Assembly: GCF_988243305.1 (NCBI RefSeq)
Contig: NZ_OZ547136.1
Strand: one strand, 5' to 3'
DNA: 64,000 nucleotides
In this document: positions 39,749 through 64,000 of the stretch, piece after piece
Position numbering within the stretch: the stretch's first letter is position 1
Layout: each line of letters opens with the position of its first letter
Notes under the pieces: generated by a model
The model's input: the letters and a program-made list of their open reading frames with translations, nothing else
What the model was told of the DNA's origin: nothing
Database searches by the model: none
Program-made: the position numbers and the translations under genes

Positions 39749-42310
39749 ATGAGTGCAATAGAAAATTTCGATGCCCATACGCCCATGATGCAGCAGTATC
39801 TCAAGCTGAAAGCCCAGCATCCCGAGATCCTGCTGTTTTACCGGATGGGTGATTTTTATGAACTGTTTTATGACGACGCAAAACGCGCGTCGCAACTGCT
39901 GGATATTTCACTGACCAAACGCGGTGCTTCGGCGGGAGAGCCGATCCCGATGGCGGGGATCCCCTACCATGCGGTGGAAAACTACCTCGCCAAACTGGTG
40001 AATCAGGGCGAGTCCGTTGCCATCTGCGAACAAATTGGCGATCCGGCGACCAGCAAAGGTCCGGTTGAGCGCAAAGTTGTGCGTATCGTTACGCCGGGCA
40101 CCATCAGCGATGAAGCCCTGTTACAAGAGCGCCAGGACAATCTGCTGGCGGCTATCTGGCAGGACAGCAAAGGTTTCGGCTACGCGACGCTGGATATCAG
40201 TTCCGGTCGTTTTCGCCTGAGCGAACCGGCTGACCGGGAAACGATGGCGGCAGAACTGCAACGCACTAATCCGGCGGAACTGCTATATGCAGAAGATTTT
40301 GCTGAAATGTCGTTAATTGAAGGTCGTCGCGGTCTGCGCCGTCGTCCGCTGTGGGAGTTTGAAATCGACACCGCGCGCCAGCAGTTGAATCTGCAATTTG
40401 GCACCCGCGATCTGGTCGGTTTTGGCGTCGAGAACGCGCCGCGCGGACTTTGTGCTGCCGGTTGTCTGTTGCAGTATGCGAAAGATACTCAACGCACGAC
40501 CCTGCCGCATATTCGTTCTATCACCATGGAACGTGAGCAGGACAGCATCATTATGGATGCCGCGACACGTCGTAACCTGGAAATTACTCAGAACCTGGCG
40601 GGCGGTGCGGAAAACACGCTGGCTTCAGTGCTCGACTGCACTGTAACGCCAATGGGTAGTCGTATGCTGAAACGCTGGCTGCATATGCCAGTGCGCGATA
40701 CCCGCGTGTTGCTTGAGCGCCAGCAAACTATTGGCGCATTGCAGGATTTCACCGCCGAGCTACAGCCGGTGCTGCGTCAGGTCGGCGACCTGGAACGTAT
40801 TCTGGCACGTCTGGCTTTACGAACTGCTCGCCCACGCGATCTGGCCCGTATGCGTCACGCTTTCCAGCAACTGCCGGAGCTGCGTGCGCAGTTAGAAAAT
40901 GTCGATAGCGCTCCGGTACAGGCGCTGCGTGAGAAGATGGGTGAGTTTGCCGAACTGCGCGATCTGCTGGAGCGGGCCATTATCGACACACCGCCGGTAC
41001 TGGTGCGCGACGGTGGTGTTATCGCATCGGGCTATAACGAAGAGCTGGATGAGTGGCGCGCGCTGGCTGACGGCGCGACCGATTATCTGGAGCGTCTGGA
41101 AGTCCGCGAGCGTGAACGTACCGGCCTGGACACGCTGAAAGTTGGCTTTAATGCGGTGCACGGCTACTACATTCAGATCAGCCGTGGACAAAGCCATCTG
41201 GCCCCCATCAATTACATGCGTCGCCAGACGCTGAAAAACGCCGAGCGCTACATTATTCCAGAGCTAAAAGAGTACGAAGACAAAGTTCTCACCTCAAAAG
41301 GCAAAGCACTGGCACTGGAAAAACAACTTTATGAAGAGCTGTTCGACCTGCTGTTGCCGCATCTGGAAGCGTTGCAACAGAGCGCGAGCGCGCTGGCGGA
41401 ACTTGATGTGCTGGTTAACCTGGCGGAACGGGCCTATACCCTGAACTACACCTGCCCGACCTTCATTGATAAACCGGGTATTCGCATCACCGAAGGTCGC
41501 CATCCGGTGGTTGAACAGGTACTGAACGAGCCATTTATCGCCAACCCGCTGAACCTGTCGCCGCAGCGTCGCATGTTGATCATTACCGGTCCGAATATGG
41601 GCGGTAAAAGTACCTATATGCGCCAGACCGCACTGATTGCGCTGATGGCCTACATCGGCAGCTATGTACCGGCACAAAAAGTCGAGATTGGACCTATCGA
41701 CCGTATCTTCACCCGCGTAGGGGCAGCGGATGATCTGGCATCCGGGCGTTCAACCTTTATGGTGGAGATGACCGAAACCGCCAATATTCTGCATAACGCC
41801 ACCGAGTACAGTCTGGTACTGATGGATGAGATTGGGCGCGGGACGTCCACTTACGATGGTCTGTCGCTGGCGTGGGCGTGCGCGGAAAATCTGGCGAATA
41901 AGATTAAAGCGTTGACGTTGTTTGCCACCCACTATTTCGAGCTGACCCAGTTACCGGAGAAAATGGAAGGCGTCGCCAACGTGCATCTCGATGCACTGGA
42001 GCACGGCGACACCATTGCCTTTATGCACAGCGTGCAGGATGGCGCGGCGAGCAAAAGCTACGGCCTGGCGGTTGCAGCTCTGGCGGGCGTGCCAAAAGAG
42101 GTTATTAAGCGCGCACGGCAAAAACTGCGTGAGCTGGAAAGCATTTCGCCGAACGCCGCCGCGACACAGGTCGATGGCACGCAGATGTCGCTGCTTTCAG
42201 TGCCGGAAGAAACCTCGCCCGCGGTGGAAGCGCTGGAAAATCTCGACCCGGATTCACTCACTCCGCGCCAGGCGCTGGAGTGGATTTATCGGTTGAAGAG
42301 TCTGGTATAA
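39749..42310 (+). CDS. mutS: DNA mismatch repair protein MutS
   Basis: 853 aa full-length MutS with Walker [10 protein letters not shown]. Confidence 0.98.
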
Positions 42311-42414: not shown

Positions 42415-43278
42415 ATGAGAATAACGATTGCATCAATAATTTTAATAATTAGCGCCACTGCAATAGGCGCCGAAGATACCCCTTCACATTTTGATATTCC
42501 CGAGCAAGTATTAAATAATATTACGAAGGAATCACGAAATAAACTGCAGGATATCATTGCCAAGGCTCAACATGGCGATAAAGCCTCACAAACGGTGATG
42601 GGACTCATATACCTGAATGGTCTATCTGAAAGTCCTTCAGTGAAGGATATAAACAAAGCATTTTATTGGCTCAACCTTGCAGCAAAGCAAAATTATGATG
42701 AAGCTGAATTTTACTTAGGACAGATTTATCATTACGGATATGATAATACGGGGCCTAACTATCGTATTGCGATATACTGGTATGAGAAAGCGGCAGAAAA
42801 AGGGAATGAACAAGCTCAAATAAACTGTGCGAATATTTATCAATTTGGCCCACAGGAATTCCAAAACATTAACAAAGCCAAGTATTGGCTTCAGAAAGCA
42901 GTACAGAAGGACAATCCTATTGCACATGCAAACTTAGGGATTATCGGAATTCAAGAGAATAAGTATGCTGAAGCTATCCCTCACTTAAAAATAGCGGCAG
43001 AAAAGGGTCAGCGACTCGGCCAATATAATTACGGGACACTTTTTTTTAATGGTCAGGGCGTTCCCAAAGATATACGACAGGCTAAATACTGGTTTGAGAA
43101 AGCTGCTACTCAAAACTTACCTATTGCACAAATTACTTTAGGACAAATTTATGCCTGGGGGCTTGATGAAAATGGCATAAATAAAGAAGAAGCGTTGCTC
43201 TGGTTAAATAAAGCCAAAGCCCAAGGTCAATTTACTGATAAACAGATCAACGCCATTATTTCAAAAAAAATAGACTAA
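42415..43278 (+). CDS. Secreted Sel1-like repeat (SLR/TPR-like) protein
   Basis: 287 aa with signal-peptide-like N-terminus MRITIASIILIISATAIGA and at least five Sel1 motifs (e.g. KAFYWLNLAAKQNYDEAEFYLGQIYHYG, IAIYWYEKAAEKGNEQAQINCANIYQFG, QAKYWFEKAATQNLPIAQITLGQIYAWG). Markedly AT-rich compared with the flanks. Confidence 0.8.
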   Translation: MRITIASIILIISATAIGAEDTPSHFDIPEQVLNNITKESRNKLQDIIAKAQHGDKASQTVMGLIYLNGLSESPSVKDINKAFYWLNLAAKQNYDEAEFYLGQIYHYGYDNTGPNYRIAIYWYEKAAEKGNEQAQINCANIYQFGPQEFQNINKAKYWLQKAVQKDNPIAHANLGIIGIQENKYAEAIPHLKIAAEKGQRLGQYNYGTLFFNGQGVPKDIRQAKYWFEKAATQNLPIAQITLGQIYAWGLDENGINKEEALLWLNKAKAQGQFTDKQINAIISKKID

Positions 43279-43290
43279 CTCCAAACCAAA

Positions 43291-43959
43291 ATGCTCAAAT
43301 CAATGCCATCTATTCGCTATCACAAAATAGAATCATTTAATTATCGCCATATATGGGCCGTTGGTGATATTCATGGCGATTATCAATTATTACAATCCCG
43401 CTTACACCAACTCTCTTTTTGCCCCTAAACTGACTTACTTATTTCCGTAGGCGATAATATTGATCGTGGGCCGGATAGTCTTAACGTGCTACGCCTGTTA
43501 AACCAGCCCTGGTTTACATCGGTTAAAGGCAACCACGAGGCAATGGCGCTTGATGCCTTCGCGACTGGCGATGGCAATATGTGGCTTGCCAGTGGCGGTG
43601 ACTGGTTCTTTGAGTTAAATGATTCAGAACAAAAAGAAGCAATAGACCTGTTGCTTCGCTTTCATCATCTTCCGCATATTATAGAAATCACTAACGATAT
43701 TATAAAATATGTTATCGCACATGCAGATTATCCGGGTGATGAATATCAGTTTGGCAAGGAAGTAGCGGAAAGAGAGGTACTCTGGCCTGTTGATCGCGTG
43801 CAGAAATCACTCAAAGGCGAGTTAAAAGAAATAAACGGTGCCGACTGTTTTATCTTCGGGCATATGATGTTTACAAATATCCAGACATTTGCCAATCAGG
43901 TTTATATTGATACCGGCTCGCCGGAAAGCGGGCGGTTATCGTTTTATAAAATAAAATGA
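43291..43959 (+). pseudogene. pphB: Ser/Thr protein phosphatase 2 (PP-lambda family), interrupted by in-frame TAA at about 43426-43428
   Basis: Frame reads MLKSMPSIRYHKIESFNYRHIWAVGDIHGDYQLLQSRLHQLSFCP-stop-TDLLISVGDNIDRGPDSLNVLRLLNQPWFTSVKGNHEAMA...; the stop lies between the GDxHG and GDxxDRG metallophosphatase motifs. Confidence 0.8.
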
Positions 43960-43963
43960 CAAG

Positions 43964-44002
43964 ACCGGGTAAGGCAAAGCCTCTACCCGGCACTTTTTTA
44001 TT
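43964..44002 (+). terminator. Hairpin (CCGGGTA ... TACCCGG) with T-tract, between convergent pphB and the decarboxylase operon
   Basis: Inverted repeat followed by CTTTTTTATT. Confidence 0.55.
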
Positions 44003-44237
44003 AACGCTTATCTGCCACCAGCAGTGGCGGAATGCTCGGCACCATTGGCGCGTCATCAATATCTTTCTGCGTCATGCGGAACGCTTCGGGATAATGTTCG
44101 CGGCTGGTGCGGCGCAGCGGTTCGGTATCGCGCCAGGTATAGAGGCAATGCTGGCACTGGTAGACCGTCCAGACATCTTTTACCGGCGATTTCGCCATCA
44201 CTTCAATCTGTTCATCAGCACAACGTGGACAAATCAT
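44001..44237 (-). CDS. Small subunit of UbiD-type non-oxidative hydroxyarylic acid decarboxylase (BsdD/VdcD-like)
   Basis: 78 aa MICPRCADEQIEVMAKSPVKDVWTVYQCQHCLYTWRDTEP with CxxC ... CxxC zinc-ribbon signature; resembles B. subtilis BsdD as I recall it. Confidence 0.8.
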   Translation of the reverse strand: MICPRCADEQIEVMAKSPVKDVWTVYQCQHCLYTWRDTEPLRRTSREHYPEAFRMTQKDIDDAPMVPSIPPLLVADKR

Positions 44238-44247
44238 CTTGTTCTCC

Positions 44248-45675
44248 TTATTGACGTGCGGCCAGCATAGCGGTCAGTTTTTCAGCCCAGGCTTTGGTTT
44301 CCGGTAAATCCACCACCGGCTGGCTGTAGTGACCACGGTTGTCCGGGGCGACAGGCGTGGTGGCGTCGATAATCAGCTTGTCGGTGATACCGGCCGGGCT
44401 TGAGCCGGGGTCGAGTTCCAGCACGGACATATTCGGCAACTGCACCAAATCCCCTGCCGGGTTCACTTTCGAAGAGAGCGCCCACATCACCTGCGGCAGG
44501 TTGAACGGATCAACGTCTTCATCGACCATAATCACCATCTTCACGTAGCCCAGACCGTGTGGCGTGGTCATCGCACGCAGGCCCACCGCGCGGGCAAAGC
44601 CACCGTAGCGTTTTTTGGTGGAGATAATCGCCAGCAGGCCGTGGGTGTACATGGCGTTCACCGCCTGCACTTCCGGGAACTCGGCTTTCAGTTGCTGATA
44701 CAGCGGCACGCAGGTGGCTGGCCCCATCAGGTAGTCGATTTCTGTCCACGGCATGCCGAGGTACAGCGATTCGAAAATCGGCCTGGTGCGGTAAGAGACT
44801 TTATCGATACGCACCACGGTCATGTTACGCCCGCCGGAGTAGTGCCCGGTAAACTCACCGAACGGCCCTTCGATTTCGCGTTTACGACTTTCGATGACCC
44901 CTTCGAGGATCACTTCTGAACCCCACGGCACATCAAAACCAGTCAGCGGGGCGGTGGCGATCGGGTACGGGCTTTCACGCAGCGCGCCTGCCATTTCGTA
45001 CTCGGACTGATCATATTTCAGCGGCGTGGCCCCCATCAGCGTGATGATCGGATCGTTACCCAAGGTGATGGCAATCGGCAGATCTTCACCGCGTTCTTCC
45101 GCTTTATGCAGATGCAGGGCGATATCGTGCATCGGCACCGGTTGCAGGCCGAGCTTACGTTTGCCCTTCACTTCCATACGATAGATACCGACGTTCTGCT
45201 TGCCGAAGTTATCCGGGTCGAGCGGATCGCGGGAAACCACGCACGCTTTGTCGAGATAGAAACCGCCATCGCCATCGTTTAAACGAAACAGCGGCAGGAT
45301 ATCGAACAGGTTGATCTCGTCGCCATCGACGGTGTTCTGCGCCCAGGCTGGATTGGCGCGGCGCTCCGGGGCAATCGGGAAGTTATCCCAGCGGCGGATA
45401 AACTCATCAATCTGCTTTTTGACCGGGGTGTTTGGCGGCAGGCCGAGGGAAATCGCGTGGTTCTGCCAGGAACCGATGGTATTCATCGCCACACGGGCAT
45501 CGGTAAAGCCGCGAATATTGTCAAACCACAGCGCGGGCGCGCCGTCGCCGATACGCCCGGTGGCGTTAGCTGCTGCTGCCAGATCCGGTTCCGCGTTCAC
45601 CTCTTCGCTGATTTTCAGTAACTGTCCGTGGTCATCAAGCGCCTGTAAAAAGCTGCGTAAATCATCAAATGCCAT
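44248..45675 (-). CDS. UbiD-family (prFMN-dependent) aromatic acid decarboxylase, BsdC/VdcC-like
   Basis: 475 aa with the full-length UbiD fold; sits in operon between the UbiX-like and small-subunit genes. Confidence 0.85.
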   Translation of the reverse strand: MAFDDLRSFLQALDDHGQLLKISEEVNAEPDLAAAANATGRIGDGAPALWFDNIRGFTDARVAMNTIGSWQNHAISLGLPPNTPVKKQIDEFIRRWDNFPIAPERRANPAWAQNTVDGDEINLFDILPLFRLNDGDGGFYLDKACVVSRDPLDPDNFGKQNVGIYRMEVKGKRKLGLQPVPMHDIALHLHKAEERGEDLPIAITLGNDPIITLMGATPLKYDQSEYEMAGALRESPYPIATAPLTGFDVPWGSEVILEGVIESRKREIEGPFGEFTGHYSGGRNMTVVRIDKVSYRTRPIFESLYLGMPWTEIDYLMGPATCVPLYQQLKAEFPEVQAVNAMYTHGLLAIISTKKRYGGFARAVGLRAMTTPHGLGYVKMVIMVDEDVDPFNLPQVMWALSSKVNPAGDLVQLPNMSVLELDPGSSPAGITDKLIIDATTPVAPDNRGHYSQPVVDLPETKAWAEKLTAMLAARQ

Positions 45676-46267
45676 TATTCATTCTCCTGAGAAAAATTCC
45701 GGACCTGCGGCAATCCTTGCCAGCGCCTGGCGTGGGATGTTCGAGGCCAAATTGATCCAGCACGCGGGCTACCACGTGGTGGACAATGTCATCTACCGTT
45801 TCGGGATGGTTATAAAAGGCAGGCATCGGCGGCACCATCGCCACGCCCATGCGTGAAAGTGCGAGCATATTTTCGAGATGGATGGTGCTAAGCGGCATTT
45901 CACGCGGCACCAGCACTAGTTTGCGGCCTTCTTTGAGCACGACGTCCGCCGCGCGCCCTACCAGGCCATCGGCGTAACCGACACGGATACCGGCGAGCGT
46001 TTTCATACTGCACGGAATAACGATCATGCCGTCGGTACGAAAGGAACCTGAGGAGATGGTCGCCGCCTGATCCGCCGGGTTATGACTGAAGTCTGCGAGG
46101 GCAGCAACATCGCGAGCGCTGTAAGGCGTTTCCAGTTCAATGGTGGTTTTCGCCCACTTCGACATCACCAGATGAGTCTCGACATTCGGCATCTCCCGCA
46201 GCGCTTGCAGTAATGCCACCCCAAGAGGCGCACCGGTAGCCCCTGTCATCCCGACGATCAGTCTCAT
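45665..46267 (-). CDS. UbiX/Pad1-family flavin prenyltransferase (BsdB/VdcB-like)
   Basis: 200 aa MRLIVGMTGATGAPLGVALLQAL ... typical UbiX N-terminus; overlaps the start of the UbiD-like gene. Confidence 0.85.
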   Translation of the reverse strand: MRLIVGMTGATGAPLGVALLQALREMPNVETHLVMSKWAKTTIELETPYSARDVAALADFSHNPADQAATISSGSFRTDGMIVIPCSMKTLAGIRVGYADGLVGRAADVVLKEGRKLVLVPREMPLSTIHLENMLALSRMGVAMVPPMPAFYNHPETVDDIVHHVVARVLDQFGLEHPTPGAGKDCRRSGIFLRRMNNGI

Positions 46268-46283
46268 TGTTTATTCTCTTAAT

Positions 46284-46390
46284 TGTTCGTATACGAACGT
46301 TATTATTAAAATACGCCTCTGTTTTCATCGCGGCAAGCACTGAAAAGTAACAACATCTTCTTCGTCACTGAAAAACCGCTATGATAGCGG
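46284..46390 (+). promoter_or_regulatory. Divergent promoter region with two palindromes (GTTCGTATACGAAC and CCGCTATGATAGCGG), candidate MarR operators
   Basis: Perfect 14-bp palindrome and a 15-bp palindrome between the decarboxylase operon and the MarR gene. Confidence 0.5.
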
Positions 46391-46821
46391 CAGATAGTTT
46401 GCCCGGAGTTTACATGGCGTTACGAAATAAAGCGTTCCATCAGTTACGACAGCTTTTTCAGCAGCACACGGCTCGCTGGCAGCACGAGTTACCTGACCTC
46501 ACCAAACCACAGTACGCGGTGATGCGCGCCATTGCTGATAAGCCTGGTATCGAACAGGTGGCACTGATAGAAGCAGCAGTCAGCACCAAAGCAACGCTGG
46601 CAGAAATGTTGGCAAGAATGGAAAATCGTGGCTTAGTCAGACGTGAACATGACGCCGCTGACAAGCGGCGTCGCTTTGTCTGGCTGACTGCCGAAGGAGA
46701 AAAGGTACTTGCTGCGGCGATCCCCATTGGTGACAGTGTGGATGAGGAATTTTTGGGGCGTTTGAGTGCAGAAGAGAAGGAGCTGTTTATGCAGTTGGTG
46801 CGCAAGATGATGAGCAAATAG
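46381..46821 (+). CDS. MarR/SlyA-family transcriptional regulator
   Basis: 146 aa with winged-HTH core (QYAVMRAIADKPGIEQVALIEAAVSTKATLAEMLARMENRGLVRREHDAADKRRRFVWLT); divergent from the decarboxylase operon. True start may be Met12. Confidence 0.8.
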   Translation: MIAADSLPGVYMALRNKAFHQLRQLFQQHTARWQHELPDLTKPQYAVMRAIADKPGIEQVALIEAAVSTKATLAEMLARMENRGLVRREHDAADKRRRFVWLTAEGEKVLAAAIPIGDSVDEEFLGRLSAEEKELFMQLVRKMMSK

Positions 46822-46941
46822 GATGCTGATTGCCGGGTAGGACGCTGACGAGTCTTATCCAGGCGACAAAACACACCGACTTCCCAAACAAAAGAAAAAG
46901 GCCAGCCTCGCTTGAGACTGGCCTTTCTGACAGATGCTTAC

Positions 46942-47920
46942 TTACTCGCGGAACAGCGCTTCGATATTCAGCCCCTGCGTTTGCAGGATTTCGCGCAAAC
47001 GGCGCAGGCCTTCAACCTGAATCTGGCGAACACGTTCACGGGTGAGGCCAATTTCACGACCTACATCTTCCAGTGTTGCCGCTTCGTACCCCAGCAAACC
47101 GAATCGACGTGCCAGTACTTCACGCTGTTTGGCGTTCAGCTCGAACAGCCATTTGACGATGCTCTGCTTCATATCGTCATCTTGCGTGGTATCTTCCGGA
47201 CCGTTCTCTTTTTCATCGGCCAGGATGTCCAGCAACGCTTTTTCGGAATCACCACCCAGCGGGGTGTCTACCGAGGTAATGCGCTCGTTAAGACGAAGCA
47301 TACGGCTGACGTCATCAACTGGCTTATCCAGTTGCTCTGCGATCTCTTCCGCACTTGGTTCGTGGTCCAGTTTATGGGACAACTCGCGTGCGGTTCGCAG
47401 GTAAACGTTCAGCTCCTTTACGATGTGAATCGGCAAACGAATAGTACGGGTTTGGTTCATAATCGCCCGTTCGATCGTCTGGCGAATCCACCAGGAAGCG
47501 GAAACCACGTTCCGGGTCAAACTTCTCTACCGCGCGGATCAGCCCCAGGTTGCCCTCTTCGATCAGGTCCAGCAACGCCAGACCACGATTGCCATAACGG
47601 CGGGCAATTTTTACCACCAGACGCAAGTTACTCTCGATCATCCGGCGGCGGGAGGCAACATCTCCACGCAGTGCGCGACGCGCAAAATAAACTTCTTCTT
47701 CGGCCGTTAACAGTGGTGAATAACCAATCTCACCAAGGTAAAGCTGAGTCGCGTCCAACACACGCTGTGTGGCTCCCTGCGATAACAGTTCCTCTTCGGC
47801 CAAATCGTTATCACTGGGTTCCTCTTCTACTAAGGCCTTTTCGTCAAAAACCTCAACTCCGTTCTCATCAAATTCCGCATCTTCATTTAAATCATGAACT
47901 TTCAGCGTATTCTGACTCAT
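46942..47920 (-). pseudogene. rpoS: RNA polymerase sigma factor RpoS (sigma-38) disrupted by an internal deletion/frameshift of about 14 bp
   Basis: Two overlapping minus-strand ORFs in different frames: 47372..47956 encodes RpoS from [11 protein letters not shown] to [11 protein letters not shown] then runs out of frame; 46942..47520 encodes [14 protein letters not shown] ... LFRE. The junction reads CGCTTC|CTGGTGGATT and residues STYAT are missing. Span is 979 bp against the 993 bp expected. Confidence 0.85.
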
Positions 47921-47982: not shown

Positions 47983-49122
47983 TTATCGCTGCGGCAAATA
48001 ACGCAGCGGGTTTACGGATTTCCCCTTGTAACGAATTTCAAAATGCAAGCGTGTTGAACTGGTTCCGGTGCTACCCATGGTTGCTATTTTTTGCCCCGCC
48101 TTCACTTCTTGTTGTTCCCGGACCAGCATTGTGTCGTTATGGGCGTAGGCACTCAGGTAATCATCATTATGTTTGATGATAATCAGATTACCGTAGCCGC
48201 GCAGCGCGTTACCGGCATAAACAACGCGGCCATCTGCGGTCGCGATAATTGCCTGTCCTTTGCTGCCTGCGATATCAATCCCCTTGTTGCCCCCCTCAGA
48301 AGCGCCAAAGGTTTCGATCACTTTGCCCTCAGTCGGCCAGCGCCAGGTGGAGATAGGCGTACTGGTTGATGTACTGCTGACAGTCGGCTCGGTTGTGCTT
48401 GCTGTTGGTACCGTTACAGGCGCTGTGACCGTGGTCGCAGTTGGCTTGTTGTTCGGCAACATTTTGTTAGCACTCTGTTCACCCGAAGACTCAGAATACG
48501 TAATTGTCGGTTGCGACGCAACAGCAACGGTGGAATTTTGTGCAGGCTTGATCACAACTCCTTGCTCTGCTGCGTCGGCCTGGGTAATGGCATTTCCGCC
48601 AGTGATTGGCGTACCGGAAGCATTACCCACCTGCAAGGTCTGACCAACGTTCAGCGCGTATGGTGCCTGAATATTGTTGCGCTGAGCAAGGTCACGGAAA
48701 TCGTTGCCAGTAATCCAGGCGATATAGAAAAGTGTGTCGCCTTTTTTCACGGTATAGGTACTGCCGCTATAGCTGCCTTTCGGAATGTTCCCATACTGAC
48801 GGTTATAGACGATGCGTCCGTTTTCCATCTGTACCGGCTGCTGAGCTACTGGCTGCACCGGCTGGATTTGCGGTTGTTGAGTGGCCTGAATTTGTGGCTG
48901 CTGTACCGGCTGAATTTGCGGTTGCTGCGCTGTAGACGTCGTTCCCATTTTCGGCGGTGGCGTAATCAACATACCAGAATTGGTATTTGCAGGCGCATTG
49001 CCATTAACGGAGCTGACCGGTGCCGGTGGATTTGAAGTGTCAGAACAGCCTGCCAGCCATAGCGAAACCAGTGACAAAGCCGCAATGCGGCGAACGGTGA
49101 ATTTTGGGCTTCCCGCGCTCAT
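47983..49122 (-). CDS. nlpD: Murein hydrolase activator lipoprotein NlpD (LysM + M23 domains)
   Basis: 379 aa with lipobox LAGCS, QPQIQ repeats and C-terminal M23 peptidase-like domain; rpoS promoters are known to lie within it. Confidence 0.95.
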
Positions 49123-58007: not shown

Positions 58008-60414
58008 GGGAGTTCTACCGCAGGGGCGGGGAACTCCAAGTGATATCCATCATCGCATCCAGTGCGTCCGGTTTATCCCCGCTGACGCGGGGAACTCCGT
58101 GTGGGAACTACGAGTAGGCCGTTTTCTCTCGGTTTATCCCCGCTGGCGCGGGGAACTCCAATATCCGCGCCGTACCCAGCAAATGCTGACGGTTTATCCC
58201 CGCTGGCGCGGGGAACTCTACCGCATATTCACCAAAGTCCTCTATTTTGTCGGTTTATCCCCGCTGACGCGGGGAACTCGAGCGGACGCTCGACGATAAC
58301 ACCGATTTGCAAGGTTTATCCCCGCTGGCGCGGGGAACTCCAATATCCGCGCCGTACCCAGCAAATGCTGACGGTTTATCCCCGCTGGCGCGGGGAACTC
58401 TACCGCATATTCACCAAAGTCCTCTATTTTGTCGGTTTATCCCCGCTGACGCGGGGAACTCGAGCGGACGCTCGACGATAACACCGATTTGCAAGGTTTA
58501 TCCCCGCTGACGCGGGGAACTCCCGTCAGGCCGCGTCAATCGTTTAGCCCACGGCGGTTTATCCCCGCTGACGCGGGGAACTCACATGGAGTACATCATG
58601 AACAGACCACTGACCCGGTTTATCCCCGCTGACGCGGGGAACTCAGATTTTAGATGAGATGAAGTTGAATAGTTTACGGTTTATCCCCGCTGACGCGGGG
58701 AACTCATAAATCATTCTTTTCTTTCATCACCTACGACCGGTTTATCCCCGCTGACGCGGGAAACTCCTGTAGACGTTCTTTGGTAATGGTTTTCATCACG
58801 GTTTATCCCCGCTGACGCGGGGAACTCAATACTACAAACATCAAATGCGTTATTTACTGCGGTTTATCCCCGCTGACGCGGGGAACTCTAAGCCGTGACG
58901 AGGGTCGCCGCTGGCGTCAACGGTTTATCCCCGCTGACGCGGGGAACTCTTACAGATGTAATAAATCACACATGTAATAGCCGGTTTATCCCCGCTGACG
59001 CGGGGAACTCGATCGGGAGGATTTTAAACGCTGGTCAATGGCCGGTTTATCCCCGCTGACGCGGGGAACTCAATTACCGGGTGTCTAGTGCTCATACGCA
59101 GCCCGGTTTATCCCCGCTGACGCGGGGAACTCAATTACTGGGTGTCTCGTGCTCATATGCAGCCCGGTTTATCCCCGCTGACGCGGGGAACTCTTTCCCC
59201 CATGCGGGAAGCGCGTGCGATTTCGCGGTTTATCCCCGCTGACGCGGGGAACTCTTTTAGGTGTGCTGAGATTATTTGTCGCGGCGCGGTTTATCCCCGC
59301 TGACGCGGGGAACTCTTATCAGCAGCCAGACCAGCATTCGGGGAATACGGTTTATCCCCGCTGACGCGGGGAACTCATGATCAAATCAGTGCCGAGCTGG
59401 TGCAGATGCGGTTTATCCCCGCTGACGCGGGGAACTCAAAACAGGTTTGCCTGTCGCCCTCCGGTCCACCGGTTTATCCCCGCTGACGCGGGGAACTCCA
59501 ATCCGTTTATTACTTTATTTCTGCCGCCTTCGGTTTATCCCCGCTGACGCGGGGAACTCCAACGTTTTGGTAATCAACGGAAGGAGCTTCGCGGTTTATC
59601 CCCGCTGACGCGGGGAACTCAATAAATTCAGGAGCGGTAACGATATATTTAACGGTTTATCCCCGCTGACGCGGGGAACTCGTAAAGGCGTTGCCCTGTT
59701 CCGTCGCTGTTGTCGGTTTATCCCCGCTGACGCGGGGAACTCATCCGTTAATTATTGAGAGAGCTATCAGCTATCGGTTTATCCCCGCTGACGCGGGGAA
59801 CTCACCATCAGTCCTTGAGCCGAGAAAATCGCCGCCGGTTTATCCCCGCTGACGCGGGGAACTCAGCTATATACGGGAGCAAGATTATAATATCTGCGGT
59901 TTATCCCCGCTGACGCGGGGAACTCTTTCGCCCAATCTTGCGCGCTCTGACCTATCTGGGTTTATCCCCGCTGACGCGGGGAACTCGTGGGTGGCTGCCG
60001 TCGCGGCTGGTGCTGCGGCGGTTTATCCCCGCTGACGCGGGGAACTCACTGAGTATTTGCCTCAAGTGATGTACTGGTCCGGTTTATCCCCGCTGACGCG
60101 GGGAACTCAATATCGCCGTCAATGCCAATATTTTTCCGCGCGGTTTATCCCCGCTGACGCGGGGAACTCGTGAAAATAGAGGAAGGGCGCATTATTGGCG
60201 GCGGTTTATCCCCGCTGACGCGGGGAACTCGCGTCAGAAGCGATTGAATCAATAGCGGATCACGGTTTATCCCCGCTGACGCGGGGAACTCGTCCATTTT
60301 CCCCCTGGAGGCTGTAATTCACCGCGGTTTATCCCCGCTGACGCGGGGAACTCTTATTCAGCCAACGCGGCGCGGGGCTTGTTTGCGGTTTATCCCCGCT
60401 GACGCGGGGAACTC
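58008..60414 (-). CRISPR. Type I-E CRISPR array: 39 full 29-nt repeats plus one degenerate terminal repeat, 39 spacers (31-33 nt)
   Basis: Repeat CGGTTTATCCCCGCTG(A/G)CGCGGGGAACTC at about 61-bp period, i.e. GAGTTCCCCGCG(T/C)CAGCGGGGATAAACCG on the transcribed strand. The degenerate repeat is at the iap end and the AT-rich leader at the cas2 end. Confidence 0.97.
58130..58493 (-). repeat. Tandem duplication (2 x 182 bp) of a three-spacer/three-repeat block inside the CRISPR array
   Basis: Spacers CAATATCCGCGCCGTACCCAGCAAATGCTGA, TACCGCATATTCACCAAAGTCCTCTATTTTGT and GAGCGGACGCTCGACGATAACACCGATTTGCA occur twice in the same order, each copy with the same GGC/GGC/GAC repeat variants; ORF-track peptides are duplicated accordingly. 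Confidence 0.95.
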
Positions 60415-60519
60415 TCTAAAAGTATACATTTGTTCTTAAAGCATTTTTTCCCATAAAAACAACCCACCAACCTTAATGTAACATTTCCTTATTATTAAAG
60501 ATCAGCTAATTCTTTGTTT
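60415..60519 (-). promoter_or_regulatory. CRISPR leader (AT-rich) with array promoter
   Basis: AT-rich segment between the last repeat and the cas2 stop; sets array polarity. Confidence 0.8.
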
Positions 60520-61723
<1,204 letters not shown>

Positions 61724-61738
61724 TTTATTACACCTAAA

Positions 61739-62338
61739 TCACAGTGGAGCCAAAGATAGCAAGCCACATCCCATCGATTTAGCTGGCCCAATACCTTGCT
61801 GTACAAGATCTATTAACGCTGGCGCGTCGTTGATGGTGATCACCCCTTCAAAGCAAACCGTTTGAATCTTTCCACTTTTACCATCACCAGAAAAATACTG
61901 TGGCCGTTCCGATATGGGATGCACATCTTCAACGCGCGCCGCATTGCCCAATTTACGTTGCAACCACGCGATTTGTTCTGCTTCTTTTATTAACGGAACC
62001 CGACAGCGTTTAATATTCCCTTTACTATCCAGGCGCTTTTGATTGTCGAGAATAGTTTTGATCGGATTTGCCCGAAGCCGAAAATAGAGTGGAACACCAA
62101 CCTGAAGTTGAAATTCAACCTGTTTAGTTTTAATGACTGTCGCAACAGCAGTTGAAACAGGCATTTGCGCTGACTGCAATAAAACATGACAGCCTTCTGG
62201 TGTGTTTCGCTTCTCAACATGAAAAAGAAAATCACGAGCAGCATCCGGTCTGTTTGGAAATAAATGCCATAATCCCTGGTGAAGTTGGTAAAGATCCCTG
62301 CTCCAGGCCCTGGCAATGATGACTTTACTGAGATACAT
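61739..62338 (-). CDS. cas6e: Cas6e (CasE) pre-crRNA endoribonuclease
   Basis: 199 aa recognised as CasE. Confidence 0.95.
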   Translation of the reverse strand: MYLSKVIIARAWSRDLYQLHQGLWHLFPNRPDAARDFLFHVEKRNTPEGCHVLLQSAQMPVSTAVATVIKTKQVEFQLQVGVPLYFRLRANPIKTILDNQKRLDSKGNIKRCRVPLIKEAEQIAWLQRKLGNAARVEDVHPISERPQYFSGDGKSGKIQTVCFEGVITINDAPALIDLVQQGIGPAKSMGCGLLSLAPL

Positions 62339-62999
62339 CCATACCTCCTTTAATCACATACCATTCTCGGGAAGCAAATTGTCGAGGTAAGGTGATCATC
62401 GGTTCGTCGCGCGCCGTAAATTTTAAATGATGCCCTGTAACTGATTCCTCACTATAAATATCGCCGCCAACGGGCTCATAATTTAATAGCGCCTTCTGAG
62501 GATCCGATGCCTGACATGTCCCCAAAAAAAGCGGGTGTGTTAGTGGGCAACTTCTCCGCCCCAGGTAGGGTGTATACCGAGGCTTTAATACTGCTTTTTC
62601 AAGTTCTGAGATAACCATCGTTGCATGGGGTGTTAACCAGAGAGCGACGGTAAAGGAGGCATCACATAAATATTCGCGCCATGTTTGAATCGTTTCATGA
62701 CTTTTCAAACCACGGTAATCTTCTCGCGCTCCAAGGACTGTATGGTAATCACGCAACCCCGTTACAGACACACGACGATCGTCAAGAATGAGTTCATCGC
62801 AGCGCACTGCAAATTGCACACTCTCTGATAACACCTGTAATGAAGAAGTATCATCACGTTGGATCCCAAGACAAGCCCCGAGTAGCCCTAATAACCCGCT
62901 TCGGGTCGGAAAACTTCCGGTAGGTCGCGTTCCTTCAAAGGTCGGCAGCCCCCAGGCTTGCATTGGCCCAGCAAGCCGCAAGATCAAATAAGATCTCAT
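62325..62999 (-). CDS. cas5: Cas5e (CasD) Cascade subunit
   Basis: Start trimmed to MRSYLILRLAGPMQAWG. Confidence 0.94.
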   Translation of the reverse strand: MRSYLILRLAGPMQAWGLPTFEGTRPTGSFPTRSGLLGLLGACLGIQRDDTSSLQVLSESVQFAVRCDELILDDRRVSVTGLRDYHTVLGAREDYRGLKSHETIQTWREYLCDASFTVALWLTPHATMVISELEKAVLKPRYTPYLGRRSCPLTHPLFLGTCQASDPQKALLNYEPVGGDIYSEESVTGHHLKFTARDEPMITLPRQFASREWYVIKGGMDVSQ

Positions 63000-63001
63000 G
63001 T

Positions 63002-64000
63002 TCATGCCTCGCCATTATTACGAACCCAGGATTTTAACTGTTCTAAAGTAGGCATTTGTTTAACTTGAGCAGTAATTGGGTCTACATCAGATAAGCTGAA
63101 TTGCGCAGCAGCTCCGTTCAGACCATATCCATTGGCAACGCGATCCCAATATTGATTAAACGCCTGTATAGACGGTTGCAAAAAGCCATCTTTCGCTTTA
63201 ACAGCTTTTTCAAAAGCATTTGCCATAGAAAGTGGCATATCGGAGAAATTAACCATTACCATATCCGCAGGGTTAAAAGCGGCATAAGTACGCTGTTTTG
63301 CTCCAGGGACCTCTGTTGCCAGCATATGAACAACATTGGTTGCAATTTCCAGAGCCTGCTCCCTGGAGGCACCACCTAAATTTTCCTGAAGTTGAGCGAG
63401 GTTAATGTTGGCGTAACGATAAAAAACACCCGATGAAAATTCCTGAGTTCCCAGATGTGCAGAACCTTGTTCCTGTAAATCATCTACAGCGGTGAACCAG
63501 TCAATATCTGAATCAACCTGATGAGTAGTGATCGCATGCGCAATGGACATTGCACCATCAACTTTTCCCAACTCACTCATCATGCCGCTGGTTGCCATTC
63601 TTCCGCTAAGCGCAATATCAACACCCTGCTGTAAATTCACACGTATGGCGGCAATATCTTCCTTAAGAACTTTGAGCAGCTTTTTATCATCCAGATTATC
63701 AGCCTCTGCTTTTGCAACCTGCTCACAGAACCAGGCTATTTCTCCCACAACCCAGGGAGTAACCGCATCGGCAGAAATCTTTTCGGCTTCATCAACTAAT
63801 TTACCGGAGAGCAGCGCTAATGTCTTATCGATGATTTTTTGGTCAAAACGTTCACCAAGTTTTTGCCGAAGAACATCACGTAATTGTGCAAGATGAATTG
63901 TTCTGAGACTGGATTCACCAATATTTTGTGCGTAATAATCACTTTTACGCATCGCACGTTTAAGGCTTTGACTTGAAATTCTTACTCGTCTTTTCCCGCC
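63002..64000 (-). CDS. cas7: Cas7e (CasC) Cascade backbone subunit, 5' end beyond the window
   Basis: C-terminal 316+ aa of a CasC-like protein; the frame is open to the window edge. Confidence 0.85.

Follow-up and report, generated by a model that had tools for sequence, protein, structure and literature searches.

An ecdBCD-hosA segment between pphB and rpoS of Escherichia coli, a probable HosA-controlled hydroxyarylic acid decarboxylase module with a frameshift allele of ecdB

The interval between pphB and rpoS in the DNA analysed here (the window, 64,000 nucleotides of contig NZ_OZ547136.1 from assembly GCF_988243305.1) is very probably the HosA-controlled module of E. coli for the non-oxidative decarboxylation of hydroxyarylic acids, which has already been characterised. 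This module is variously referred to as ecdBCD, hadBCD, kpdBCD or pad1-yclC, together with hosA (also 'slyA'), and is known from solved structures of HosA, of the B subunit and of a homologous CD complex, from a defined operator and inducer, and from routine annotation. In the window, the gene content, the family membership, the conserved catalytic and zinc residues, the near-identity to known proteins and the presence of the operator are all observed. One of the genes, ecdB, is a lineage-specific -1 frameshift allele.

The segment is bordered by mutS and pphB (43303-43959) upstream and by rpoS downstream, and its features are collected in Table 1. The list of open reading frames places the genes in the order B-C-D on the minus strand and contains every frame that the first-pass annotation had claimed, namely those of 78 (D), 475 (C) and 200 (B) residues and a MarR-family frame at 46381-46821 on the plus strand, which is divergent from B-C-D as described and is recognised by the Pfam MarR model. 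The start of hosA is most likely the ATG at 46414, which is used in RefSeq relatives and in the crystallised protein and gives 135 residues, as against 146 from 46381. The overlapping starts and stops reported earlier are found only between B and C, where the overlap is 11 nt in the window and 1 nt (TAATG) in relatives, whereas C and D lie 10 nt apart with an AGGAG ribosome-binding site inside the gap. Next to ecdD, CCGGGTA...TACCCGG followed by a T run can be read on the plus strand; this hairpin is a possible terminator between pphB and ecdD, and is absent from the output of a consensus terminator scan. At the other end, the terminator scan returns a 15-pair stem that runs into a series of T residues. 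K-12, which lacks the ecd-hosA segment, has the same sequence after ygbN. This hairpin bounds the segment on its right-hand side, and transcription of hosA probably stops there as well. A simple scan found no sigma-70 consensus promoter within 43900-47000, and a search of the region against Rfam returned no RNA families.

Table 1. Features of the segment between pphB and rpoS, in window coordinates
Feature	Position	Strand	Description
Putative hairpin terminator	43965..43990		between convergent pphB and ecdD; sequence reading only
ecdD/vdcD	44001..44237	-	78-aa zinc-ribbon activator subunit of the decarboxylase
ecdC/vdcC	44248..45675	-	475-aa UbiD-family prFMN-dependent decarboxylase subunit
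ecdB/vdcB (pad1)	45665..46267	-	UbiX-type flavin prenyltransferase, 200 aa, -1 frameshift allele
HosA operator (by sequence match)	46285..46298		14-bp perfect palindrome GTTCGTATACGAAC, located 18-31 nt before the start codon of ecdB
hosA	46414..46821	+	MarR-family repressor; PDB 8AGA match, Pfam MarR
rpoS terminator hairpin	46895..46928	-	terminator scan

The three enzyme genes pass the curated NCBIfam models VdcB, VdcC and VdcD and match the solved ShVdcC, ShVdcD and O157:H7 Pad1 proteins, which bears out the earlier view that the segment has the architecture of bsdBCD/vdcBCD-type phenolic acid decarboxylases. The C subunit scores 790.5 bits on NF041204 (VdcC, cut-off 650), contains the Pfam domains UbiD_N, UbiD and UbiD_C, and is 54.2% identical to ShVdcC (PDB 7AE4_A, E=2e-160; Marshall 2021). 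Its residues R166, E269 and E274 align with R168, E273 and E278 of ShVdcC, such that the Glu-Arg-Glu triad is conserved. N161, H183 and E225 align with N163, H185 and E227, which by analogy with Fdc1 and UbiD are taken to be the prFMN and metal-ligand positions. The assignment of the D subunit is settled by the VdcD model NF041205, on which it scores 121.2 bits (cut-off 30); against Pfam it gave only a sub-threshold match to DUF1062, and the same protein carries PF26358 (EcdD_BsdD_detox) in the contig index. D also matches ShdD in PDB 7AE4 (chain a, E=4e-11), R36 and E39 are conserved, and the residues Cys3, Cys6, Cys28 and Cys31, which make up two CxxC knuckles, stand where ShVdcD has its four zinc ligands and may act likewise. 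In published work VdcD, the partner of VdcC-type enzymes, binds zinc and is required for activity. The B subunit scores 302.2 bits on NF041206 (VdcB, cut-off 290) over residues 2-178 and 238 on TIGR00421 (cut-off 109), is recognised as a Pfam Flavoprotein, and aligns with Pad1 of O157:H7 (PDB 1SBZ, E=4e-115) to about residue 178/179. In comparison with O157:H7, identity extends to 474 of 475 residues for C, 75 of 78 for D (of which RefSeq relatives have an identical copy), 129 of 135 for HosA, and 176 of 178 for B over residues 1-178.

For HosA, the alignment with PDB 8AGA ('Transcriptional regulator HosA', E=2.5e-83) shows identity at 132 of 134 residues; the variant in the window has K122, S134 and K135. 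Upstream of ecdB, the palindrome GTTCGTATACGAAC has its sole match in the window, even when up to two mismatches are allowed, and the site is identical in O157:H7 and conserved in AH01 and other relatives. A 14-bp HosA binding site has been described (Cao 2018); in table S1 of that paper the T_H oligo reproduces the palindrome and the bases next to it exactly, and the same flanking sequence recurs in DNAHosA-F0/R0. As judged from this match of sequence, the palindrome is the published HosA operator, lying between hosA and the decarboxylase operon. By the account of later papers, 4-hydroxybenzoate, which is also a substrate of the operon, releases HosA from its operator (Roy & Ranjan 2016, PMID 26818787). 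The literature further describes repression of the operon by HosA and its relief by 4-hydroxybenzoate, and reports such release for HosA from UMN026 and from E2348/69.

Repression, induction, the requirement for D, and activity towards 4-hydroxybenzoate and vanillate are carried over here from the literature, the last of these from homologues, and on this basis the module would be expected to operate as follows. Without inducer, a HosA dimer would occupy the 14-bp palindrome, which lies in the ecdB-ecdC-ecdD leader, and repress both the operon and hosA, and on binding 4-hydroxybenzoate it would come off the DNA. EcdB, as a UbiX-type enzyme, would prenylate reduced FMN to generate prFMN. The UbiD-type EcdC, expected to be a hexamer, would then use prFMN, Mn2+ and the Glu-Arg-Glu triad in the reversible decarboxylation of para-hydroxy aromatic acids, producing phenol from 4-hydroxybenzoate and guaiacol from vanillate. 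Finally, the Zn(Cys)4 ribbon of EcdD would bind each EcdC subunit and position the catalytic loops. The decarboxylase is expected to be oxygen-sensitive. Conversion of 4-hydroxybenzoate to phenol has been described for an E. coli lysate expressing kpdBCD (Lupa 2005, as relayed in PMC6424909). The earlier statement that the substrate is not determinable is fair for the sequence by itself, but the literature names 4-hydroxybenzoate.

The B protein is 200 rather than 197 residues long because a single G is missing from a run of four (GGGG to GGG, a 1-bp deletion) at 45733/45734; residues 179-200 are out of frame, and 22 new residues replace the native tail of 19. The deletion was found in none of 2376 complete genomes, and a sequencing error was rejected as its cause, since the exact 200-residue protein is encoded on 177 public contigs, without further damage. 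Over the 58 kb compared with the nearest complete genome, no coding indels occur other than this deletion and the one in rpoS, and a further locus, L009, matches the window over 7.6 kb save for the rpoS deletion. Matches of UbiX-family profiles to B end at 176-177 of 181-184 positions, such that only the last few are lost, and all of the residues conserved in the family appear to precede codon 179. For this reason, and because the housekeeping UbiX could also supply prFMN, we infer that the module is active in the window even with the altered tail of EcdB.

The main rival to an active module, itself improbable, holds that this lineage is losing the module, the frameshift having killed the prenyltransferase and left the operon either dead or wholly dependent on UbiX. 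Such decay would account for the lesion at codon 179 as well as for its surroundings, as the adjacent pphB has a nonsense codon common to the lineage and a stretch of 4.1 kb holds three of the gene lesions in the window, with around 55 other compared genes intact. However, C, D and HosA are also undamaged and differ little from their O157:H7 counterparts, and the frameshift affects only a poorly conserved tail, with the profiles and 1SBZ aligning through residue 178. The equivalents in B of Tyr169 and Arg185 of Pseudomonas aeruginosa UbiX, which would be Y152 and R168, also precede the frameshift. The allele has persisted on its 177 contigs, and the end of B still falls within the beginning of C, for which reason translational coupling should survive.

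A broader proposal also merits mention. The pocket positions V180 and L419 of C and V66 of D are in the state found in Bacillus subtilis and not in that of S. hydroxybenzoicus, which suggests that the pocket of the window's EcdCD resembles the B. subtilis enzyme. It is conceivable, though on the unlikely side, that the module of this lineage is in the first stages of change, that the fixed frameshift, with its 22-residue tail and the fixed pphB nonsense codon alongside, alters or abolishes EcdB and leaves EcdCD reliant on UbiX, and that the B. subtilis-type pocket confers a wider range of substrates, including syringate, than the 4-hydroxybenzoate generally cited. Were this the case, the wider range of EcdCD would matter for the output of phenol, guaiacol and dimethoxyphenol by gut E. 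coli.

The damage to the neighbouring genes consists of the nonsense codon E42* in pphB and a 14-bp deletion in rpoS, and both are pseudogenes in the window; with both neighbours broken, relaxed selection on this stretch is possible. An origin from Shigella, which clustered pseudogenes might bring to mind, was considered unlikely, as the region 30000-54000 is without a multi-copy element (at most three places per genome) and the rest of the window is collinear with an E. coli genome, with the other compared genes intact.

Other identities for the enzyme fare less well than the 4-hydroxybenzoate/vanillate decarboxylase favoured here. A protocatechuate (AroY-type) or gallate decarboxylase is very unlikely: Klebsiella and Enterobacter homologues of B and D do raise AroY activity and ShVdcCD had minor gallate activity, but the C subunit is distant from AroY (5O3M, E=9e-28, against 2e-160 for ShVdcC) and the inducer of HosA is 4-hydroxybenzoate. 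It is more improbable still that the genes are a second UbiD/UbiX pair for ubiquinone biosynthesis, acting on 3-polyprenyl-4-hydroxybenzoate. The folds are the same, with C matching E. coli UbiD (PDB 2IDB/5M1C, E about 1e-46) and B matching UbiX structures; yet C fails the UbiD equivalog NF008175 (173.7 bits against a cut-off of 788) while passing VdcC, a VdcD subunit, the partner of VdcC-type enzymes, is present, the regulator responds to free 4-hydroxybenzoate, and the segment is wholly absent from K-12. A bagremycin/ferroverdin-type BagLMN set making a vinylphenol unit for a secondary metabolite is extremely unlikely, for although BagM_FevK and BagL_FevM give the best NCBIfam E-values for B and the MarR protein, the models score far under their cut-offs (BagM 322.5 against 420, BagN 115.5 against 1000, BagL 88.6 against 230) and biosynthetic genes are absent nearby.

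The connection drawn earlier with the known mutS-rpoS polymorphism is correct, and the gene order is that of O157:H7. The arrangement kpdD-kpdC-kpdB-slyA adjoins rpoS in EDL933-type and E2348/69-type strains (Ewers 2014, PMC4209514), and the window follows pattern I of that study (O157:H7-type), which lacks ygbN (o454) and has kpdD-C-B-slyA in the interval from pphB to rpoS. The Ewers F3/R4 amplicon is 2206 bp in the window, as against 1318 bp, because of an additional Sel1/TPR gene of low GC content lying between mutS and pphB. The locus is a rarer sub-variant with this gene. The segment is carried by 2379 of 5426 complete E. coli genomes (around 44%), in which RefSeq annotates the same genes, while ygbI-N is found in 4577 of the 5426 and a direct pphB-D junction, as in the window, in about 790. 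The first-pass annotation held that the segment replaces the ygbI-ygbN of K-12. These genes are indeed missing, K-12 ygbI-ygbN giving no BLAST match in the window, from which primers F5 and R3 are also absent; about two thirds of segment carriers, however, have both, as does strain AH01. The idea of alternative alleles was rejected on this account, and the decarboxylase segment and ygbI-ygbN are independent neighbours.

The module represents a strain-variable trait, K-12 being among the strains without it. By analogy with homologues, it would let gut and environmental E. coli produce phenol from 4-hydroxybenzoate, for which parabens, plant phenolics and the breakdown of tyrosine are sources. 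It also marks the mutS-rpoS recombination hot spot, which is well studied and used in strain typing. The useful output from the window is a corrected annotation, encompassing the EcdB frameshift allele, the pphB and rpoS pseudogenes and the Sel1/TPR sub-variant.

Among known systems, the segment corresponds most directly to ecdBCD (the 'HAD operon') with hosA of E. coli O157:H7, EPEC and UPEC, with the same genes in the same order and orientation at the same site by rpoS; PDB 1SBZ and 8AGA are themselves proteins of this system. It differs from the O157:H7 locus in the frameshifted tail of EcdB, 22 residues rather than 19, and in the extra Sel1/TPR gene. KpdBCD is likened to it by description as an enterobacterial B-C-D operon, and Ewers 2014 uses the kpd names in E. 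coli. Like VdcCD/ShdCD of Sedimentibacter hydroxybenzoicus and BsdCD of Bacillus subtilis, the window encodes a UbiD-type C subunit together with a Zn(Cys)4 ribbon D subunit, and conservation relative to VdcCD/ShdCD extends to the ERE triad and metal-ligand positions of C, the four cysteines of D, and two inter-subunit salt bridges out of three. Identity to ShVdcCD is nevertheless limited to 54% for C and 27 of 66 residues for D, the salt bridge between ShVdcD R12 and ShVdcC D173 is not conserved (E12 and G171 in the window), and the pocket is of the B. subtilis type. The folds and the prFMN chemistry are those of UbiD and UbiX in ubiquinone biosynthesis, whereas the D subunit, the 4-hydroxybenzoate-sensing repressor and the failure of C on the UbiD equivalog set the module apart from that pair.

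The block between pphB and rpoS encodes the subunits of a non-oxidative hydroxyarylic acid decarboxylase (ecdBCD, also called vdcBCD, kpdBCD or pad1-yclC), and each protein exceeds the curated cut-off of the corresponding NCBIfam model: 302.2 bits against 290 for B (VdcB, UbiX-type), 790.5 against 650 for C (VdcC, UbiD-type), and 121.2 against 30 for D (VdcD). The Pfam domains, namely Flavoprotein, UbiD_N/UbiD/UbiD_C and, for the divergent gene, MarR, are consistent with these assignments. B matches O157:H7 Pad1 (PDB 1SBZ; E=4e-115), with near-identity across residues 1-178, C matches Sedimentibacter VdcC/ShdC (PDB 7AE4; E=2e-160, 54.2% identity), and D matches Sedimentibacter ShdD (E=4e-11). 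The cut-offs passed, the MarR domain and the 1SBZ and 7AE4 matches bear out the first-pass annotation, which had described a UbiX/UbiD/small-subunit operon of the bsdBCD/vdcBCD type with a divergent MarR gene. Its gene set stands, but its boundaries need correcting: hosA has an in-frame ATG at 46414, its probable start, and B is frameshifted from residue 179, beyond the part that aligns with the family profiles and 1SBZ. GC content reaches 57-60% in the three decarboxylase genes, against 51-55% in flanking DNA and 37-39% in the Sel1 gene.

Genes of the mutS-nlpD region, from the ORF listing
Feature	Position	Strand	Remarks
mutS	39749-42310	+	
Sel1-repeat gene	42415-43278	+	287 aa
pphB	43303-43959	+	interrupted
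D subunit	44001-44237	-	78 aa
C subunit	44248-45675	-	475 aa
B subunit	45665-46267	-	200 aa
MarR-type ORF	46381-46821	+	in-frame ATG at 46414
rpoS	46942 to about 47920	-	falls in two frames
nlpD	47983-49122	-	

The regulator can be named: it matches "Transcriptional regulator HosA" (PDB 8AGA, plus six more entries) at E=2.5e-83 and shares 132 of the 134 aligned residues. The 146-bp divergent spacer harbors a perfect 14-bp palindrome, GTTCGTATACGAAC, at 46285-46298, 18-31 nt ahead of the ecdB start codon. It is the single match in the whole window with up to two mismatches allowed, and it is conserved in relatives including O157:H7 and AH01. Cao et al. 2018 (PMC6261655) worked with a HosA binding site of 14 bp, and their T_H oligo (table S1) contains exactly this palindrome with its immediate flanks; in their DNAHosA-F0/R0 oligos the surrounding sequence is the same as in the window. 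According to later accounts of Roy & Ranjan 2016 (Biochemistry 55:1120), HosA is a repressor of its own gene and of the decarboxylase operon and binds downstream of the transcription start, 4-hydroxybenzoate leads to HosA release and operon induction, and this same compound is among the pathway substrates. Lysate of E. coli expressing kpdBCD converts 4-hydroxybenzoate to phenol, a result of Lupa 2005 as cited in PMC6424909. A second small palindrome, ACCGCTATGATAGCGGT (46375-46391; 7-bp stem, 3-nt loop), lies shortly before the hosA start codon and overlaps the alternative start (ATG at 46381). It is conserved in O157:H7, and AH01 carries one change in it.

Of 5426 complete E. coli genomes, 2379 carry the 3.1-kb segment at a coverage of at least 80%, chromosomally in every case, and PGAP labels its products as subunits B, C and D and a MarR regulator. 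In K-12, which lacks the segment, pphB and rpoS are separated by ygbI-ygbN; in O157:H7 the order is pphB-D-C-B-hosA-rpoS; and in strain AH01 D-C-B-hosA comes after ygbI-ygbN. Together with the counts for ygbI-N (4577 genomes) and for a direct pphB-D junction (about 790), these arrangements mean that ygbI-N and D-C-B-hosA are independent indels, in agreement with Ewers 2014 (patterns I, II and IV); most segment carriers have both. The proposed link to the mutS-rpoS polymorphism holds, but the claim that the segment replaces ygbI-ygbN is loose, since AH01 has both.

In the Ewers scheme the window is a pattern-I variant. Its in-silico F3/R4 amplicon measures 2206 bp and that of O157:H7 1318 bp; the difference is due to the Sel1/TPR gene, which occurs in only 181 of the 5426 genomes. 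This gene sits between mutS and pphB, where K-12 and O157:H7 have a short spacer, and its protein passed no NCBIfam model cut-off. A few complete genomes match the 3.1-kb segment (43900-47000) at 99.8-99.9% identity, whereas the best match across 24 kb (30000-54000) reaches only 98.9%, with differences clustered in blocks such as the spacer between ygbA and mutS and the 3' portion of mutS. This mosaic pattern fits recombination in the region.

Relative to its relatives, the window carries a G to T change at 43426 that turns pphB codon 42 from GAA to TAA, making pphB a pseudogene, and a 1-bp deletion in B at 45733/45734. B now terminates 10 nt into C, whose start codon is still preceded by an intact AGGAG. 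The B deletion is found in 0 of 2376 complete genomes carrying the locus; the exact 200-aa protein is present on 177 public contigs. In rpoS, a 14-bp deletion (GTTGCGTATGTTGA) at 47494/47495 puts the sequence out of frame beyond about residue 142. Five loci with the 200-aa B, from related draft assemblies, all carry both the deletion in B and the stop codon in pphB, and so these two changes are fixed in a lineage. All five are otherwise near-identical but have intact rpoS, and one of them, L009, is identical to the window across 7.6 kb except for the rpoS deletion, which thus looks private to this isolate within the set of compared loci. In a different strain, CH4796 (L001), an independent rpoS deletion of 68 bp spans the same site. 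About 55 other window genes compared are intact; all three gene-disrupting changes fall within 4.1 kb (43426-47495), a clustering that could reflect chance, or the known mutS-rpoS instability and recombination.

At the window end lies a type I-E-like CRISPR array (about 58037-60400) in which at least 36 repeats recur every 61 bp and a 182-bp stretch is exactly duplicated in tandem (58131-58312 = 58313-58494). The adjoining cas genes (60500-64000) are very unlike those of the nearest complete genome, with Cas1 85% identical and Cas6e, Cas5e and Cas7e 26-35% identical; because of this divergence, they are the other E. coli cas variant.

The first-pass observation and interpretation were essentially right, and the module is textbook-level and previously characterised; added here are the identity of the regulator with its operator and inducer, corrected gene boundaries, and the documented frameshift allele of B with its flanking pseudogenes. 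A mechanistic comparison is provided by Marshall et al. 2021 (PMC8379154), in whose system VdcC is inactive without VdcD, a zinc ribbon formed via C3, C6, C28 and C31 that binds next to the loops bearing the catalytic Glu-Arg-Glu triad, with E278 as the catalytic glutamate. All four cysteines are present in the window D subunit, which also retains R36 and E39, and in C the triad positions are R166/E269/E274 and the predicted metal-ligand positions N161/H183/E225. Pocket size and syringate acceptance were tied in the same study to ShVdcC L182, ShVdcC M423 and ShVdcD I60; at all three positions the window has the B. subtilis state (V180, L419 and V66), which, judged from these residues, may bear on the substrate range of its enzyme.
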